From Variovorax sp. H27-G14 (lineage in GTDB: Bacteria > Pseudomonadota > Gammaproteobacteria > Burkholderiales > Burkholderiaceae_C): DNA of 24,000 bases. Both the position numbers and the translations under genes were made by a program. The stretch covers positions 87,170-111,169 of the forward strand of contig NZ_JAYLVN010000015.1 of NCBI RefSeq assembly GCF_046156345.1, written 5' to 3'. How positions within the stretch are numbered: position 1 is the first letter of the stretch; each line of letters begins with the position of its first letter. The notes below the pieces were generated by a model. That model made no database searches. It was not told where the DNA came from and saw only the letters and a program-made list of their open reading frames with translations. This document shows, piece by piece, positions 6,283 to 15,969 of this stretch.

Positions 6283-6312
6283 CTAGGACGGATGGACCGC
6301 CCCGGTGTTCAT
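6283..6312 (-). promoter_or_regulatory. ECF-sigma-type promoter for the fhuF-pvdF-pvdA (possibly receptor) transcription unit
   Basis: The minus strand reads TGAACA (6311-6306)-N14-CCGTC (6291-6287)-CTAG. The -10 lies ~45 nt upstream of the fhuF ATG (6243). It is near-identical to the plus-strand site 40 bp away. Confidence 0.5.
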
Positions 6313-6346
6313 GGCGCACGGCGCGATCCACGGTGTGAACCCCAGC

Positions 6347-6375
6347 GTGAACATTTCTGCGGGCCGCCCGTCTAG
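6347..6375 (+). promoter_or_regulatory. ECF-sigma-type promoter for the pvdE-fur-macAB-opmQ operon
   Basis: gTGAACA (6348-6353)-N14-CCGTC (6368-6372)-TAG, with the classic ECF AAC/CGT cores 16 nt apart. It lies ~100 nt upstream of the ATG at 6472. A second GTGAAC sits at 6335-6340. Confidence 0.5.
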
Positions 6376-6471
6376 AGGAGTACAGGCGGCCCGGTCGCCC
6401 TTCGTTCGCGTCGGTGGCAGGGGTTGCCCTGCCACCGACCACAGTCGCCTGCGGGCGGAAAGAGTTCTTGC

Positions 6472-8159
<1,688 letters not shown>

Positions 8160-8163
<4 letters not shown>

Positions 8164-8747
8164 ACGACGGCCTGGAACCCCACGACGCGCAACGCCCGGC
8201 GTTCTTGACGCAACTGCGGGCCGCATGCATCCGGCCGTCGGTCGTGCGGCTGTGCGTGCTGCAGACGCTGGCGGACGCCGGCACCGAGTGGCAGCGCGGC
8301 GAAGAGGTGTTCCGCCGCATGCTGCTGCGTGGCACCTCGGCCAGCCTGACCACGGTCTACCGCATCCTCAAGGAGTTCGAGCATGCGGGGCTCATCGAGC
8401 GCGAATGGGTGCGCAGCCGGGGCGGCGCGCTGGCGGTGTTCCGCTACGCAGCACCCGACGCGCACGCCAATGCCGCGAGTGTGCGCATGCGCTGCAGCGG
8501 TTGCGGCGCCGCCACCGAGGTGCACGACCGCGAACTCCACGAGGCGCTGACCCGCGTGGCGCGGAACCAGGGCCTGCCGCCCAGGGGCACCTTCGACGTG
8601 CAGATCCACGGCGCCTGCGCGGCGTGTCGGCAGGCTGGCGCCTTCGAGTCGTCGAGCGACAGCGGATCGGGCGGTCACGCCAGGATGCTGCCGCTCGCGG
8701 GTTTCCAGCCCCGCCCACGTGCGCGCGCGCAGCGTCTGGCGGCGTAG
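8160..8747 (+). CDS. Fur-family transcriptional regulator, divergent paralog with C-terminal extension
   Basis: ATGA start/stop overlap with pvdE (8160-8163). Winged-helix part (RLCVLQTLAD...SLTTVYRILKEFEHAGLIER) and CxxC...CxxC (CSGCG...CAAC) are collinear with E. coli Fur. The His-rich regulatory site is largely absent. There is a ~50 aa Ser/Arg/Pro-rich tail. Confidence 0.8.
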
Positions 8748-8750
8748 CGG

Positions 8751-9947
8751 GTGGGTGGCGTGAGTGATATGCACGATGCACGCGATGCGCGTCAGGGCGC
8801 CTGGCGGCGACGTGCGGTTGCGTGGCTGTTGGTTTTCTTGTGCGCGGCGGCCGGCGCGGGGCTGCTGTGGGGGCGCGGCGAGGCCGCGGATGTGGCGTCC
8901 GTGGCGGTCGTGCGAGGCACCATCGAATCCAGCGTCACGGCGCTCGGCGTGCTGCAGCCGCGGCACTACGTGGACGTGGGCGCACAGGTCTCGGGGCAGA
9001 TCCTGCGGTTGCACGTGCAGCCGGGCGACGTCGTCGAACGCGGGCAACTGCTGGTGGAGATCGACCCCAGCGTGCAGCAGGCCACGGTGGACGCGGGCCG
9101 TGCGTCGCTCGCGGGGCTGCGCGCACAGCGCGACGACCAGCGGGCCCAGCACCTGCTGGCGCAGCAGCAGCACCAAAGGCAGCGCCAGATGGCGGCCGAC
9201 GGCGCCACGCGCGACGAGGACGTGCAGGGCGCGCAGGCCACGCTGACATCGGCCGCTGCGCGCGTGCGCCAGTTCGAGGCACAGGTGGTGCAGACCCAGG
9301 CGACGCTGAAGGCCGACGTGGCCCGCCTCGGCTACACGCGCATCTACGCGCCGATGGCCGGCACCGTCGTGTCGGTGGAGGCCCGGGAAGGCCAGACGCT
9401 CAACGCCACCTACCAGACGCCCAACGTGCTGCGCATCGCCGACCTGTCGTCGATGACGGTGTGGTCCGAGGTGTCGGAGGCTGACGTGCGGCGCATCAAG
9501 ACCGGCATGCCGGTCTACTTCACCACGCTCGGCGAAAGCCAGCGCCGCTGGCAGGGCCGCGTGCGGCAACTTCTGCCCGCGCCGCCGGTGCCCGAGAACA
9601 AGTCGAACGGCGACGGCGGCGCCAAGGCCTCCGGCGCGGCGAGCAAGGTGGTGGTCTACACGGCGCTGTTCGACGTCGACAACGCCGACGGCGAACTGAT
9701 GCCGCAGATGACGGCCAAGGTCGCCTTTGTCGAATACGCCGAGAAGGACGTGCTCTTGGTGCCGCTTGCCGCGCTGGTGCCGGTGGCCGGCAGCGGCGAT
9801 CGCTTCATCGCGCGCGTGTTGCGCCCCGACGGCAAGGTCGAGCCGCGGCAGCTGCGCGTTGGCGTGCGCAACCGGCTTTCCGCCCAGGTGCTGGACGGCA
9901 TGCAGCCGGGGGAGCGCATCGTCACCGCCACGGCGGCGAAGCCATGA
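8751..9947 (+). CDS. macA: Periplasmic adaptor (HlyD/MacA family; PvdR-like) of tripartite efflux pump
   Basis: N-terminal TM anchor, lipoyl/hairpin motifs (VSGQILRLHVQPGDVVERGQLLVEID, coiled-coil, YTRIYAPMAGTV). The start is GTG 8751 or ATG 8769. The stop overlaps the macB start (ATGA at 9944-9947). Confidence 0.88.
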   Translation: MGGVSDMHDARDARQGAWRRRAVAWLLVFLCAAAGAGLLWGRGEAADVASVAVVRGTIESSVTALGVLQPRHYVDVGAQVSGQILRLHVQPGDVVERGQLLVEIDPSVQQATVDAGRASLAGLRAQRDDQRAQHLLAQQQHQRQRQMAADGATRDEDVQGAQATLTSAAARVRQFEAQVVQTQATLKADVARLGYTRIYAPMAGTVVSVEAREGQTLNATYQTPNVLRIADLSSMTVWSEVSEADVRRIKTGMPVYFTTLGESQRRWQGRVRQLLPAPPVPENKSNGDGGAKASGAASKVVVYTALFDVDNADGELMPQMTAKVAFVEYAEKDVLLVPLAALVPVAGSGDRFIARVLRPDGKVEPRQLRVGVRNRLSAQVLDGMQPGERIVTATAAKP

Positions 9948-11950
9948 CGCCGGCGGCAAGCGCTGGCGGCGACACGCCCCGGCCCCTGATCGAACTGCAG
10001 GGCATCGGCAAGTCTTACGGCGGCCAAGACGCCTTGGCGGGCGCTCCGGCCACCACGGTGTTGCATGGCATCTCGCTGCGCATTCATGCCGGCGAATTCG
10101 TGGCCATCGTCGGTGCCTCGGGCTCGGGCAAGTCCACGCTGATGCACATTCTGGGTTGCCTCGACCGGCCGAGCGCTGGCCGCTACCTGTTCGACGGGCA
10201 GGACGTGGCCAGCTTCGACGCCGACGCGCTTGCCTGGCTGCGCCGCGAGGCCTTCGGCTTCGTGTTTCAGGGCTACCACCTTGTGCCCAGCGAATCGGCG
10301 CGCGAGAACACCGAGATTCCCGCGCTCTACGCCGGCATGCCCGAAGCCGAACGGCGCGCGCGTGCAACCGCACTGCTCGAGCGGCTGGACATGGGCGCGC
10401 GGCTCGACCATCGCCCGCACCAGCTGTCGGGCGGGCAGCAGCAGCGCGTGGCCATCGCGCGCGCGCTGATGAACGGCGGGCGCATCATCCTGGCCGACGA
10501 GCCCACCGGTGCGCTCGACAGCAAGAGCGGCGCCGAGGTGATGGCGCTGCTGCACGAGCTGGCGGACGCGGGCCACACCATCATCCTCATCACGCACGAC
10601 CGGACGGTGGCCGCGCAGGCGCGCCGCGTCATCGAGATCCGCGACGGGCGCATCGTGGCGGACGCGGGCCACGGCGAGAGCGACGGCATGGCCGCTCCCG
10701 CGCCCGGCGCCGCGCCTGCGCCGGCGGCGCCCTTCAGGCACCCGACCTCGCCCGGCGGCGCGTCGCTGCTCGCCGACATTCACGAAGCCACGAGGGCGGC
10801 CTGGCGCGTCATGTGGAGCAACAGGTTGCGCACCGGCCTCACGCTGCTGGGCATCGTGATCGGCGTCGCCTCGGTCATCGTGATGCTGGCGGTGGGCGGC
10901 GGCTCGCAGCAGAAGGTGATGGCGCAGTTCGAAACCTTCGGCACCCGCACCATGTTCGTTGCCGCGCAGATCGCCAGCCTGCGCAACCCGAGCGCGCCGC
11001 TCACGCTGGAGGACGCGCTGGCCATCGGCACGCTGGCGAACGTGGAGGGCGTCGCGCCCTACATCGAGGACAAGGTGGTGGTGCGCCGCGGCAACGTCGA
11101 CCATCTCACGGAGGGCGGGGGCGCCACTGTCGATTTCTCGCGCGTGCTCGGCTGGGCCGTGAGCCAGGGCGTGATGTTCGACGCCGAGGACGAACGGCGC
11201 GTCGCCAAGGTGGCCGTGATCGGCGAGACGGTGCGCAAACGCTTGTTCGCCGACGGGCAGAACCCCCTCGGTCAGGACATTCTGGTGGACAAGGTGCCGT
11301 TCCAGGTGGTCGGCGTGCTGGCCTCCAAGGGCGCCACGGACGGCGAGGACCAGGACGACCGGGTGGTGGTGCCGCTGTCTTCGGCGGCCACCCGGGTCTA
11401 CGGTCATGCCAACCCGACGTGGATTGCGGTGCAGGTGCGCGACATCGACAAGGCTCAGGAAACGGCCACCGCCATCGAGGCGCAACTCGAGCGGCAGCAG
11501 GCCGGGCGCAACGTGCTGGTATGGAACCGTGTCGAGGCGTTGCGCGTGCAGACCGAGACCGCCCGTGCCATGACCATGATGCTGGGGCTGATCGCGATCG
11601 TGTCGCTGGTGGTGGGCGGCATCGGCGTGATGAACGTGATGCTGATGACGGTGCGCGAGCGCACGCGCGAGATCGGCATCCGCATGGCCACCGGCGCGCG
11701 GCAGCGAGACATTCAGCGTCAGTTCATGACGGAGGCGGTGCTCGTGACCTCGGTGGGTGGGACGCTCGGCGTTGCCGCGGGGCTGGGCATCGTGGTGGCG
11801 CTGTTGCTGGCGGGCGTGCCGGTGACGTTCTCGCTGCCTGCGAGCATCGGCGCCTTCGGCTGCGCGGTGCTGACGGGCGTGATCTTCGGCTTCATGCCGG
11901 CGCGCAACGCCGCGCGGCTCGACCCGGTCGTGGCGCTGGCGGGGGAGTGA
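9944..11950 (+). CDS. macB: MacB-type ABC transporter, fused ATPase-permease (PvdT-like)
   Basis: N-terminal NBD (GASGSGKST, LSGGQQQRVAIARAL, ILADEPTGALD) followed by an FtsX-like four-TM permease with a large periplasmic domain. 668 aa. Confidence 0.92.
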   Translation: MTPAASAGGDTPRPLIELQGIGKSYGGQDALAGAPATTVLHGISLRIHAGEFVAIVGASGSGKSTLMHILGCLDRPSAGRYLFDGQDVASFDADALAWLRREAFGFVFQGYHLVPSESARENTEIPALYAGMPEAERRARATALLERLDMGARLDHRPHQLSGGQQQRVAIARALMNGGRIILADEPTGALDSKSGAEVMALLHELADAGHTIILITHDRTVAAQARRVIEIRDGRIVADAGHGESDGMAAPAPGAAPAPAAPFRHPTSPGGASLLADIHEATRAAWRVMWSNRLRTGLTLLGIVIGVASVIVMLAVGGGSQQKVMAQFETFGTRTMFVAAQIASLRNPSAPLTLEDALAIGTLANVEGVAPYIEDKVVVRRGNVDHLTEGGGATVDFSRVLGWAVSQGVMFDAEDERRVAKVAVIGETVRKRLFADGQNPLGQDILVDKVPFQVVGVLASKGATDGEDQDDRVVVPLSSAATRVYGHANPTWIAVQVRDIDKAQETATAIEAQLERQQAGRNVLVWNRVEALRVQTETARAMTMMLGLIAIVSLVVGGIGVMNVMLMTVRERTREIGIRMATGARQRDIQRQFMTEAVLVTSVGGTLGVAAGLGIVVALLLAGVPVTFSLPASIGAFGCAVLTGVIFGFMPARNAARLDPVVALAGE

Positions 11951-11952
11951 CC

Positions 11953-13434
11953 ATGTTGCGCACACCGTTTGTATTTCGCACTGCCTGGGTGTTGTCGTGC
12001 GCGGCATGGGTGAGCGGCTGTGCGTTGCAGGGCGACCGCGCAGATCGCGCGGTGGCGCTGCCTGCTGCGTGGCAAGCCGCACCGCCCGCACCGCCCGCAC
12101 CGCCCGCACCGCCCGCACCGCCTACACCGCCTGCACCAGCCGCGGCGGGCCCGGTCGATGCAGATTGGTGGCGCAGCTTCGGCAGCACCGAACTCGACGC
12201 GCTGGTTGCGCTCGCGCAGGCGCAAAGCAACGATCTGGCCGCCGCCGCGGCGCGCGTGGCGCAGGCCGACGCGCTGGCCCGCATCGCCGGTGCGGCATTG
12301 CGCCCGCAGCTCACGGCCACGCTGGACGCTGCCCGCGAAGGGCGATTGGGCGGGCAAGCGGCGGTCGATGGCAGCACCTACGCCGCCGGCTTCAGCGCCC
12401 GCTACGAACTTGACCTGTGGGGCCGCGACGCCGCATCGCGCGACCAGGCGCTGCAAGACGTGCGTGCAAGCGCCTTCGAGCGCGACACAGTGCGGCTGGG
12501 CGTGACGGCCAGCGTTGCATCGGCGTGGCTGCTGGGGCAGGCACTGCGCGAGCGCGCCGGCATTGCGCAGCGCAATCTCGACAATGCGCGCCGCGTGCTG
12601 GCGCTGGTCGAATCGCGCAGCCGTGCCGGCGCGGTGTCGCCGCTGGACCTGGCACAGCAACGCGGGCTGGTGGCCGCTCAACAGCGCAGCGTTGCGGCGC
12701 TGCTGCAGCAGGCACGCGATGCGCAAGCCGCGCTCGCGGTGCTGCTGGGAGCCACATCGCCGGTGGCCGCAGGGCCGGGCCTTGCACTCGATTTGCTGCA
12801 GGTGCCGTCCATTGATGCCGGCGCGCCGTCGGCGCTGCTGCTGCGTCGCCCTGACATCGCCCGCGCCGAGGCGCAGCTGGCCGCTGCCGACGCCAATGTG
12901 CTGGCCGCGCGCGCCGCGTTGCTGCCCACCGTGTCGTTGAGCGCGTCGGTGGGCACGGGGCAGGGCCGCTTCGGCAGGCTGTTCGACAACCCGCTCTACA
13001 GCCTGGCCGCGGGCTTGGCCGCGCCGATCTTCGATGGTGGCCGGCTGGCCGGCGGTCGTGAGCTTGCGCAGGCCCGGCGAGAGGAACTGCTGGCCGCCTA
13101 CCGCGGTGTCATCGTCGCGGCGCTTGCCGATGCGCAGACTGCGCTGAACGCGGTGTCGGGCACCGACGCACAGGCCGGCGCACAGGCCGTCGAGCTGGCC
13201 GAAGCGCGGCGCGCGGCCGTGCTGTCGGAGTCGCGCTACCGCGCGGGCGCCGAGACACTGCTGAGCTTGCTGGACGCGCAGCGCACGCTCTACGTGGCGC
13301 AGGACCTGTCGGTGCAGTTGCGCATGGCGCGCCTGCAGGCGCGGGTTGCGCTGTACCGCGCGCTGGGTGGCGGCTGGCAGGCGGACCTGCGTGCGGGTGC
13401 GCCTTCTGCGGTGAAGGCGGCAACGCCCGGCTGA
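11953..13434 (+). CDS. NodT/OprM-family outer-membrane efflux lipoprotein (OpmQ-like)
   Basis: Lipobox WVSGC, Pro-rich linker, and two TolC-like repeats (WW..F....L..L...A...N.DL, SRYRAGAETLLSLLDAQRTLY, LYRALGGGW). It starts 2 nt after the macB stop. Confidence 0.9.
   Translation: MLRTPFVFRTAWVLSCAAWVSGCALQGDRADRAVALPAAWQAAPPAPPAPPAPPAPPTPPAPAAAGPVDADWWRSFGSTELDALVALAQAQSNDLAAAAARVAQADALARIAGAALRPQLTATLDAAREGRLGGQAAVDGSTYAAGFSARYELDLWGRDAASRDQALQDVRASAFERDTVRLGVTASVASAWLLGQALRERAGIAQRNLDNARRVLALVESRSRAGAVSPLDLAQQRGLVAAQQRSVAALLQQARDAQAALAVLLGATSPVAAGPGLALDLLQVPSIDAGAPSALLLRRPDIARAEAQLAAADANVLAARAALLPTVSLSASVGTGQGRFGRLFDNPLYSLAAGLAAPIFDGGRLAGGRELAQARREELLAAYRGVIVAALADAQTALNAVSGTDAQAGAQAVELAEARRAAVLSESRYRAGAETLLSLLDAQRTLYVAQDLSVQLRMARLQARVALYRALGGGWQADLRAGAPSAVKAATPG
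12079..12141. repeat. In-frame 9-bp tandem repeat (gcaccgccc) in the OMP lipoprotein linker
   Basis: Four perfect units (12079-12114) plus three degenerate ones. It encodes APPAPPAPPAPPAPPTPPAPA just after the lipobox. Confidence 0.92.
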
Positions 13435-15201: not shown

Positions 15202-15831
15202 TCACGAAAAATCTTCCGCCAGCGCCGCGTCGAAGCCCTGGCGGTTCGCCAGCACCTGCGGCTCGATCAGTTCGGCGCGCAGTTGCGCGAACACGCGCGA
15301 GCAGTCGATGGTGGCGCGCAGCATGTGCTTGGCCACAGCCATTTCGGTGATGTTCAGGCGCTGCGCGATTTCGGCGCGCGTGTGGCCGTAGGCACGAAAG
15401 AGCAGGAACACTTCGCGCCGGCGCGGCGGGAGCTTTTCCATGGTCTCCACCACGCGTGCGAGCACGCGCTGCTGGGCAACCACGTATTCGCTGGACTGGG
15501 CCGTCTGGTGCATGCCGACGTCGGCGTGCGCGCCGGCCCACTCCTGCGCCACCTTTCGGTGGCGAGCGTCGTCGATGCACAGGTTGCGTGCCACGCGAAA
15601 GAGCAGGGCGCGGGGCGACTCGATGGCTTCATGCACGCCGGGCGTGCCTGGCATGCCTGGCATGCCTGGCGTGGCGGACGGGCCGCCACGCGACTTCAGC
15701 GCCGCCGAATACACCCGCTCGAAGCTGGACTGCGCGATGTCGGCCGCGTAATGCGGGTCTCTCAGGTCGCGGGTGAGCTGTCGGCGCAGGTCCGCATAGT
15801 GAGCTACCAGTTCCTGAACGAGGTCGCGCAT
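15202..15831 (-). CDS. ECF sigma-70 factor, FecI/FpvI/PvdS-like iron-starvation type
   Basis: Region 2 (ADIAQSSFERVY...LLFRVARNLCIDDARHRK) and region 4 HTH (LPPRRREVFLLFRAYGHTRAEIAQRLNITEMAVAKHMLRA). ATG at 15831 follows GAAGG. It is adjacent to fecR. Confidence 0.9.
   Translation of the reverse strand: MRDLVQELVAHYADLRRQLTRDLRDPHYAADIAQSSFERVYSAALKSRGGPSATPGMPGMPGTPGVHEAIESPRALLFRVARNLCIDDARHRKVAQEWAGAHADVGMHQTAQSSEYVVAQQRVLARVVETMEKLPPRRREVFLLFRAYGHTRAEIAQRLNITEMAVAKHMLRATIDCSRVFAQLRAELIEPQVLANRQGFDAALAEDFS
15641..15676. repeat. In-frame 9-bp tandem repeat inside the ECF sigma CDS
   Basis: ggcgtgcct, ggcatgcct, ggcatgcct, ggcgtggcg. It encodes ATPGMPGMPGTPG between sigma regions 2.1 and 2.2. 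Confidence 0.9.
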
Positions 15832-15923: not shown

Positions 15924-15969
15924 AATAAGAACTATTCCTATTGAAGTGTATCACTGAATTGTTAGCCAA
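15924..15969 (-). promoter_or_regulatory. Candidate sigma-70 promoter with overlapping Fur-box-like sequence upstream of the ECF sigma gene
   Basis: The minus strand reads TTGGCT (15969-15964)-N18-TTCAAT (15945-15940). ATAGGAATAGTTCTTAT (15941-15925) matches 11/17 of the Fur-box core ATAATGATAATCATTAT. It sits in a local AT-rich island inside a GC-rich genome. Confidence 0.3.

Follow-up and report, generated by a model that had tools for sequence, protein, structure and literature searches.

We report that furL, an open reading frame (ORF) at positions 8160-8747 on the forward strand of a 24,000-nucleotide stretch of the Variovorax sp. H27-G14 genome, is a real, selected and conserved gene, and that its product, a 195-residue Fur-family protein (FurL, P0001), appears to have kept the DNA-reading surface of Fur while both of its metal-sensing sites were replaced. 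This stretch, hereafter the window, corresponds to C15:87170-111169 of a 7.7 Mb genome. Fur-family proteins are textbook metal sensors. In every ortholog, furL is an internal member of a siderophore exporter operon, coupled by overlap to the gene before it, as a sequence-only reading of the window (the initial annotation) had proposed. The reading that we favour, at a little under an even chance, is that FurL would be a functional, dimeric DNA binder of the Fur fold that works independently of metal, its input being its own abundance, set by an operon under the control of an extracytoplasmic function (ECF) sigma factor.

Ligand positions were assigned from HMMER alignments to the Fur proteins of Pseudomonas aeruginosa (6H1C, 1MZB) and Escherichia coli (8J6W), using P. 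aeruginosa numbering (Table 1). Seven of the eight regulatory ligands are replaced in FurL, E120 being the only one kept. Among 19 homologs (65-84% identity), no substitution occurs at R95 or F145, and W44, R109 and E120 each show at least 90% conservation. These alignments reproduce the one behind the earlier claim that the regulatory His cluster is replaced, and the loss of both sensing sites is a conserved trait and not a one-off decay. Fur of Magnetospirillum gryphiswaldense is no longer functional in vivo when mutated to H33A/H90A or E108A/H125A (PMC4506495), and because natural FurL has other residues at all four positions, it cannot use the canonical metal-activated mechanism. The DNA-binding side of the protein is predicted to be intact: the alignment places R25 at Lys15, which reads minor-groove shape in canonical Fur, R30 at Arg20, which contacts the backbone, and Y67 and R68 at Tyr56 and Arg57, which read bases (PMC4506495). 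The winged helix and the paired CxxC motifs had been described as retained, and with R25, R30, Y67 and R68 kept and all four cysteines unchanged in the 19 homologs, both are.

The two CxxC pairs predict a zinc site of the Cys4 type, and it is here that iron could still be perceived, if the site held a [2Fe-2S] cluster or served as a thiol redox switch instead of binding structural zinc. C112, C115, C153 and C156 are invariant both in the orthologs and in a more distant group of about 50% identity, and site 1 of E. coli Fur can hold a [2Fe-2S] cluster, although a 2024 Chem Rev review calls the generality of that finding unclear (PMC11672702). However, Cys4 is missing from a group of relatives encoded directly after an outer-membrane factor (OMF-FurL) and from P0092, which lies in a PvdE-FurL-MacAB arrangement; since these distant, exporter-coupled relatives lack it, the function shared by the clade needs no Cys4, and we consider sensing through this site quite unlikely. 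The original proposal of a 'non-iron-sensing or differently liganded' regulator thus stands in part: both canonical metal-sensing sites are gone, and this is conserved, but that FurL is blind to iron is something we only infer, because an iron-sulfur cluster at Cys4 could still sense it.

That FurL is a Fur-family paralog was borne out by profile and structure. It matches the Pfam FUR model (PF01475) at 47 bits for a cut-off of 23.1, and reaches no NCBIfam equivalog cut-off among Fur, Zur, Irr and PerR, with 38.5 bits against 146 for Fur (NF006999), 28.9 against 150 for IrrA and 26.1 against 170 for Irr (both over the N-terminal domain only; Irr models NF045677, NF045678), 24.5 against 167 for Zur (NF008646) and 19 against 180 for PerR (NF052545 and related models). 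An AlphaFold2 (AF2) model based on 19 homologs has its secondary-structure elements in the Fur order, with a predicted local distance difference test (pLDDT) score of 79-92 for the DNA-binding and 62-81 for the dimerisation domain, residues 161-195 being predicted as disordered. When this model was compared with the Protein Data Bank (PDB) by Foldseek, all 50 top matches were Fur, PerR, Zur, Mur or Nur proteins. FurL could nevertheless be an ordinary Zur, Irr, PerR, Mur or Nur protein in which another metal or haem site is intact, or else a decaying pseudogene. Its Cys4 site is that of Zur and PerR, and there are weak N-terminal matches to Irr and Zur. Yet every equivalog model scores it at 19-38 bits against cut-offs of 146-220; neither a Cys-Pro haem motif nor an HxH motif is present in its sequence; no His, Cys or Asp is conserved at the hinge positions, where Zur has its regulatory zinc site, nor at the site-2 and site-3 positions on which all these subfamilies rely; Trp, Arg, Arg and Glu stand at site 2, where PerR has a His/Asp site able to bind Fe or Mn; and a tree parts the site-less group from site-complete Fur at a Shimodaira-Hasegawa-like approximate likelihood ratio (SH-aLRT) support of 80. 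Decay, for its part, conflicts with purifying selection and with conservation in 10 species. We regard both possibilities as very improbable.

Selection acts unevenly along the protein. Computed per segment over the ten orthologous genes, the ratio of nonsynonymous to synonymous substitution rates (dN/dS) is 0.17 in the DNA-binding domain, 0.39 in the dimerisation domain, 0.99 in an indel-rich linker of varying length (residues 161-175), and 0.14 in the last 20 residues. As dS in this last segment is 0.88, the constraint operates at the protein level, and the contrast with the linker indicates that the tail is a neutral spacer bearing a constrained terminal motif. An appended, Ser/Arg/Pro-rich tail of ~50 residues had been noted before; a C-terminal extension does exist, but it is 39 residues long counted from C156, and it is not uniformly of low complexity, consisting of a variable linker followed by a conserved end. 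The motif has the consensus MLPLAGFxxRPRxxQRL(A/S)A, in which L177, P178, G181, R185, P186, R187 and A195 are invariant, and occurs once in the host genome.

This tail brings in another explanation, that FurL acts mainly through protein contacts, either in mixed dimers with canonical Fur or by docking of its motif to a partner (the ECF sigma factor or mini-FecR, an exporter ATPase, or a protease adaptor). In favour of this, FurL has kept its dimerisation domain, and its motif, under constraint as strong as that on the DNA-binding domain, is carried by a disordered linker in the manner of a typical short linear docking motif; the motif is also confined to the group that has the MacAB-OMF-mini-FecR cassette. 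However, the best-conserved residues across the clade are DNA contacts and most clade members carry no such tail, so that we hold a mainly protein-contact function to be improbable. The extreme C-terminus was also considered as a degron: in ssrA-type tagging, a C-terminal Leu-Ala-Ala-COOH is recognised by ClpX. FurL ends in QRLAA (window 8739-8747), the PvdE-like exporter encoded before it ends in LESLAA (8158-8163), and the tmRNA tag of this genome is ANDERFALAA. In this Ala-rich host genome, LAA ends ~0.4% of the long ORFs with high third-position GC, and about one third of FurL homologs end in LSA instead of LAA. As LAA is not rare, is shared by the neighbouring PvdE and is replaced in a third of the homologs, a ClpX degron is only one possibility, suggestive but weak.

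The start of the pvdE-like gene is ATG 6472, as fixed by ortholog alignment, and its stop overlaps the furL start as initially described, by an ATGA or GTGA in all ten orthologs. The furL ORF has a third-position GC content of 0.89, the same as its flanking genes, and ends with TAG at 8745-8747. Three starts are possible for macA (GTG 8751, GTG 8760 and ATG 8769), of which GTG 8760 is best supported because GTGAGTGAT is conserved in orthologs; it leaves a gap of 12 nt after the furL stop, within the 3-21 nt first proposed. Neither a sigma-70-like promoter nor a convincing terminator-like site was detected from pvdE through the operon end, which, like the conserved overlap, supports the place of furL in the operon.

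Table 1. Features of the furL locus and of its product (window coordinates; ligands in P. aeruginosa Fur numbering, then FurL numbering).
Feature	Position	Strand	Basis or remark
furL	8160-8747	+	winged-helix DNA-binding domain, dimerisation domain, disordered linker, conserved C-terminal motif
Overlap ATGA, furL ATG (8160-8162) with pvdE TGA (8161-8163)	8160-8163	+	translational coupling signal
Primary regulatory ligand H32, now W44	8289-8291	+	HMMER alignment
Primary regulatory ligand E80, now R95	8442-8444	+	HMMER alignment
Primary regulatory ligand H89, now R109	8484-8486	+	HMMER alignment
Primary regulatory ligand E100, kept as E120	8517-8519	+	HMMER alignment
Remodelled former primary sensing site as a whole	8289-8519	+	W44, R95, R109 and E120 in place of His/Glu/His/Glu
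Second regulatory ligand H86, now A101			HMMER alignment, approximate in loop 101-108
Second regulatory ligand D88, now A103			HMMER alignment, approximate in loop 101-108
Second regulatory ligand E107, now H127			variable among homologs (H, Q or R)
Second regulatory ligand H124, now F145			HMMER alignment
Recognition helix LTTVYRILKEFEHA, residues 63-76 with Y67 and R68	8346-8387	+	equivalent to Tyr56 and Arg57 of M. gryphiswaldense Fur
Predicted Cys4 site, C112-S-G-C115 (8493-8504) and C153-A-A-C156 (8616-8627)	8493-8627	+	invariant in 19 homologs
Variable Ser/Gly/Pro-rich linker, residues 161-175	8640-8684	+	predicted disordered, pLDDT <50
Conserved C-terminal motif RMLPLAGFQPRPRARAQRLAA, residues 176-195	8685-8744	+	purifying selection
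PvdE-like cyclic-peptide/siderophore ATP-binding cassette (ABC) exporter, first gene of the operon	6472-8163	+	TIGR01194, 619 bits
PvdRT-OpmQ-type tripartite exporter: MacA-like adaptor (8760-9947), MacB-like ABC pump (9944-11950), outer-membrane factor (11947-13434)	8760-13434	+	profile matches, synteny
Divergent ECF-sigma-type promoters TGAACA ... CGTC, for fhuF-pvdF-pvdA and pvdE-furL-macAB	6283-6375		both blocks in all ten ortholog loci
Fur-box-like palindrome AATAGGAATAGTTCTTATT (sigma strand)	15924-15942		just upstream of the ECF sigma gene 15202-15831 (minus strand)

The surroundings of furL form a complete hydroxamate-siderophore set, with an STN-domain TonB-dependent receptor (TBDR), an ornithine N-monooxygenase, a formyltransferase, a FhuF-like reductase, an ECF sigma factor with FecR, and a SIP reductase; about 10 condensation domains of nonribosomal peptide synthetases (NRPSs) lie directly upstream of the window (C15:50-87 kb). 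The host genome encodes four Fur-family genes, FurL included. A canonical fur is indeed found elsewhere, as was to be checked: it lies on C10, has both Cys4 and the HHDH motif, and passes the NF006999 cut-off of 146 bits with a score of 173. A weak Zur-like gene is present on C7. The remaining one, at C11:87400-87756, scores 121 bits with the Fur equivalog, under the same cut-off; its primary regulatory site (H, E, H, E) is intact, and it has neither Cys4 nor part of the second site.

By its sequence, FurL belongs to a wider, undescribed group of seemingly sensor-less Fur-type proteins in iron-transport operons. The ortholog profile retrieved 717 matches at E<=1e-3 and 124 at E<=1e-10 from 1.84 billion representative proteins. 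Among the best 150 matches, 142 full-length proteins (each representing a sequence cluster) were scored for ligands, and in 127 of them neither regulatory site has more than two ligand-type residues. The E80 and H89 positions are most often occupied by Arg (65/142 and 66/142, respectively), and site-complete Fur proteins first appear at about rank 85 of the profile matches. In an alignment of 81 clade sequences, only L19, R25, R30, Y67, R68, C112, L130 and G138 are at least 90% conserved, and these positions are mainly the predicted DNA contacts. The tree mentioned above, a quick maximum-likelihood reconstruction, covers 60 site-less and 10 site-complete Fur proteins and leaves aside curated Zur, PerR and Irr references; its support of 80 for the split between the two sets is moderate, and it joins the orthologs and the 50%-identity group as sisters (SH-aLRT 94). 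Named clade members come from Variovorax, Xenophilus, Pseudothauera and Kerstersia and are all generically annotated, as 'Fe2+ or Zn2+ uptake regulation protein' or 'transcriptional repressor', names that are probably misleading for FurL-type genes. A profile search of a 5.8-billion-protein set yielded mostly close orthologs and three usable distant proteins, and genomes of the order, searched with the ortholog profile, gave mainly matches of ~54 bits, which are probably canonical Fur. Of the three distant proteins, P0201 is a canonical fur adjoining bamE and recN, and P0105 has no iron context. Literature searches returned no description of FurL or of the site-less clade, and neither is mentioned in the papers on Variovorax and Delftia siderophore clusters that were consulted.

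The arginines raise the question of a different ligand. Other metal-sensor families have members turned to non-metal signals, and FurL might sense an anionic small molecule in a pocket formed by W44, R95, R109 and E120, candidates being the siderophore in its apo or ferric form, a precursor, or a carboxylate or phosphate metabolite. The ligand would open or close the hinge and match exporter expression to the siderophore load of the cytoplasm, much as local efflux-pump repressors do. Two Arg and a Trp lie exactly at the hinge ligand positions and are conserved, and the gene is always found with siderophore exporters or uptake genes. On the other hand, the Arg-Arg signature is common to relatives belonging to different siderophore systems, and the remaining positions of the pocket vary widely across the clade. 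Both this sensing and the hinge movement that it would entail seem unlikely to us.

To describe the distribution of furL, we surveyed one genome from each of 148 Variovorax species. Full-length orthologs (347-382 bits) were present in 10 species, the source species among them, and all ten loci have the same organisation, TBDR-PvdA-PvdF-FhuF divergent from PvdE-FurL-MacA-MacB-OMF. In six further species, the relatives of 50% identity keep the W, R and R substitutions together with Cys4 and have no terminal motif; they lie 60-100 nt 3' of the PvdE ortholog, in clusters that carry no MacAB at that position. Relatives of 40% identity, from Variovorax and another Comamonadaceae genus, are the last gene of TBDR-PepSY_TM-x-MacA-MacB-OMF-FurL, overlap the stop of the preceding gene by ATGA or GTGA in 5/5 cases and have no Cys4. 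In other genera, one relative ends a TBDR-PepSY_TM operon and another adjoins an FTR1-type iron permease. The exporter arrangement recurs in the metagenome locus L073, where P0092 (30% identity, no Cys4) is part of PvdE-FUR-MacA-MacB-OEP with overlaps of 4 nt and 7 nt, next to an NRPS, an ECF sigma factor, a DUF4880 protein and hydroxamate-tailoring genes.

The gene is not a constant partner of PvdE. A PvdE ortholog with 71% identity or more occurs in about 60 Variovorax species, mostly with no FurL beside it. In two clusters whose PvdE is 93% identical (L044/G348 and L045/G346, compared with L024-L029), the whole FurL-MacA-MacB-OMF-mini-FecR block is absent, and two other clusters have MacAB-OMF and no FurL. 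From these FurL-less and block-less clusters it follows that FurL is an accessory component that moves with exporter modules. The block is present or absent as one unit between otherwise near-identical clusters, and in the short ones (L044, L045) pvdE still ends in ...GCATGAAC or ...GCATGAGC, with a convergent FecR gene ~70 nt further. Some copies look eroded: L035 (G357) is possibly degraded, with an in-frame TGA within the second CxxC motif; L043 (G356) and L050 (G419) retain only the N-terminal DNA-binding half, beside pvdE; and the representatives P0023 and P0024 (115-128 residues) look likewise degraded. Three clusters of the 50%-identity group (L033, L036 and L038) carry, between fhuF and pvdE, a small ORF of ~80 residues (MNSRHHVPSDPAFSEAWRLFRELHD...) whose product is similar to the FecR N-terminal domain. 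This ORF is preceded by an ECF-type promoter of its own, TAAACAT...CGTCTA, and pvdE by another.

We searched the intergenic regions for a FurL operator. The block upstream of the sigma gene, TCGGTGATACACT-N-AATAAGAATAGTTCTTATT, which comprises its promoter and a palindrome, is invariant in 15 FurL-containing loci, and the Fur box within it, AATAAGAA-NNN-TTCTTATT, is the only strong palindrome in the aligned fhuF-pvdE and sigma-upstream regions of these loci. This motif family has more than 10 other sites in the host genome. We rejected the box as a FurL operator because it also occurs in FurL-less clusters and at those other sites; it is probably a canonical Fur operator and not specific to FurL. 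A scan of the window with the E. coli Fur-box consensus returned nothing at >=12/19 matches. At its centre, the box has TAG in all ten ortholog clusters and in four of the five 50%-identity clusters checked (TCG in the fifth), and TAA in most FurL-less clusters, where it makes a perfect 9-1-9 palindrome. This difference was set aside as a FurL signal since it is confounded with lineage and has two counter-examples (G306, G387). The divergent ECF promoter blocks are likewise found in FurL-less clusters. The pvdE 5' untranslated region (UTR) contains, between the ECF promoter and the ribosome-binding site, a hairpin (6410-6439) with a 13-bp stem, GTCGGTGGCAGGG-GTTG-CCCTGCCACCGAC. Folding of 6395-6475 gave a minimum free energy of -39.7 kcal/mol (z = -3.5), and both arms vary in orthologs while pairing is kept. 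As a FurL operator, this hairpin was rejected, being present in FurL-less clusters too and changing in ways that preserve pairing; the exporter transcript probably carries it as an RNA element.

The mechanism that we favour, metal-independent binding by a regulator whose input is its own level, can be outlined as follows. FurL would make no regulatory use of metal, all its regulatory ligands but one Glu being replaced, mostly by Arg, Trp, Ala or Phe, and as it would have no sensor of its own, its input would be its abundance. The pvdE-furL operon would be driven by the ECF sigma factor of the cluster, whose gene carries the Fur box; because of this double control, FurL should be present only at low iron with the siderophore system on. 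It would accumulate when Fe-Fur has left the DNA and would occupy AT-rich sites of the Fur-box type with no need of iron. Negative feedback on the siderophore system could result, or a hierarchy or cross-regulation among iron-uptake systems. From the residues found at the former primary site, R95 and R109 may pair with E120 and pack on W44, thereby replacing the metal that locks the DNA-binding domain to the dimerisation domain. Carried on its flexible linker, the C-terminal motif probably serves as a signal for docking or turnover and would thereby tune FurL activity.

Several observations weigh against this mechanism. No cis-element exclusive to FurL-carrying clusters was found in the fhuF-pvdE and sigma-upstream regions, the sigma Fur box, the ECF promoters and the pvdE 5'-UTR hairpin being equally present where FurL is missing. 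About 45 Variovorax species have an orthologous PvdE with no adjacent FurL, which makes FurL dispensable for the basic system. E120, the partner in the proposed salt bridge, is not conserved across the wider clade. The superpositions of the FurL model with the lowest root-mean-square deviation are with apo, open PerR and not with a closed, DNA-ready state; the predicted template modelling score (pTM) of 0.48 means that the inter-domain geometry has low confidence and that the arrangement of the domains is not reliable. Finally, NE0730 of Nitrosomonas europaea, a Fur paralog also without the eight ligands, does not repress an E. coli Fur-regulated reporter (PMC3050691). A broader version of our proposal, which we think doubtful, takes in the whole clade of at least ~125 clusters, mostly betaproteobacterial or metagenomic. 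Its members would have given up metal sensing to become operon-embedded, translation-coupled reporters of siderophore traffic, either through a non-metal ligand such as a siderophore at the Arg/Trp hinge or as iron-independent stand-ins for Fur, with the Variovorax motif adding turnover or docking control. If so, such stand-ins would re-impose repression or rank the uptake systems during starvation.

A conserved, selected subfamily that has the DNA-reading surface and neither sensing site would matter for the Fur family as a whole. A 2024 review assigns one or two metalloregulatory sites to its members and lists only sensors of metal, peroxide and haem (PMC11672702). Such a subfamily would extend it as CstR and FrmR did the CsoR family. 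Tied by start/stop overlaps to operons for siderophore export and uptake, the subfamily also suggests that a level of regulation beneath Fur and the ECF sigma factors has been overlooked in the siderophore systems of soil and rhizosphere Betaproteobacteria. Among these are the Variovorax clusters of the delftibactin/vacidobactin type, a subject of study because they promote plant growth and antagonise Pseudomonas.

Compared with Fur sensu stricto (E. coli 8J6W, P. aeruginosa 1MZB/6H1C, M. gryphiswaldense 4RB1), FurL has the same fold, with a winged-helix DNA-binding domain and an alpha/beta dimerisation domain, its best sequence match being 43 bits to 6H1C, shares the predicted DNA-reading residues and has a Cys4 that matches that of E. 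coli Fur. It differs in its 7/8 replaced ligands and in its 39-residue tail with a terminal motif, and also in genetic context, as FurL is encoded inside an exporter operon by overlap whereas Fur is a stand-alone global regulator gene. The haem-responsive Irr of alpha-proteobacteria is, like FurL, a Fur-family protein that does without Fe(II) co-repression, and FurL too would be active at low iron; the Irr models give its second-best NCBIfam matches. However, FurL has neither the haem Cys-Pro nor the HxH of Irr, and Irr lacks the Cys4 that FurL has; haem inactivates Irr or triggers its degradation, whereas FurL would be controlled by transcription and possibly by proteolysis. A Fur paralog in a transport operon also exists in an unrelated lineage: MAP3773c of Mycobacterium avium subsp. 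paratuberculosis, described as lying in a putative metal-transport operon on a genomic island, besides housekeeping regulators (PMC7192006), is comparable to FurL on the basis of that description. The closest precedent is the betaproteobacterial NE0730, compared here by description: it is reported to lack all eight P. aeruginosa ligands and yet to group with Fe-Fur, and complementation of an E. coli fur mutant failed, after which it was studied no further (PMC3050691). Of the two proteins, FurL is the one for which a place inside an exporter operon and a conserved C-terminal motif are reported.

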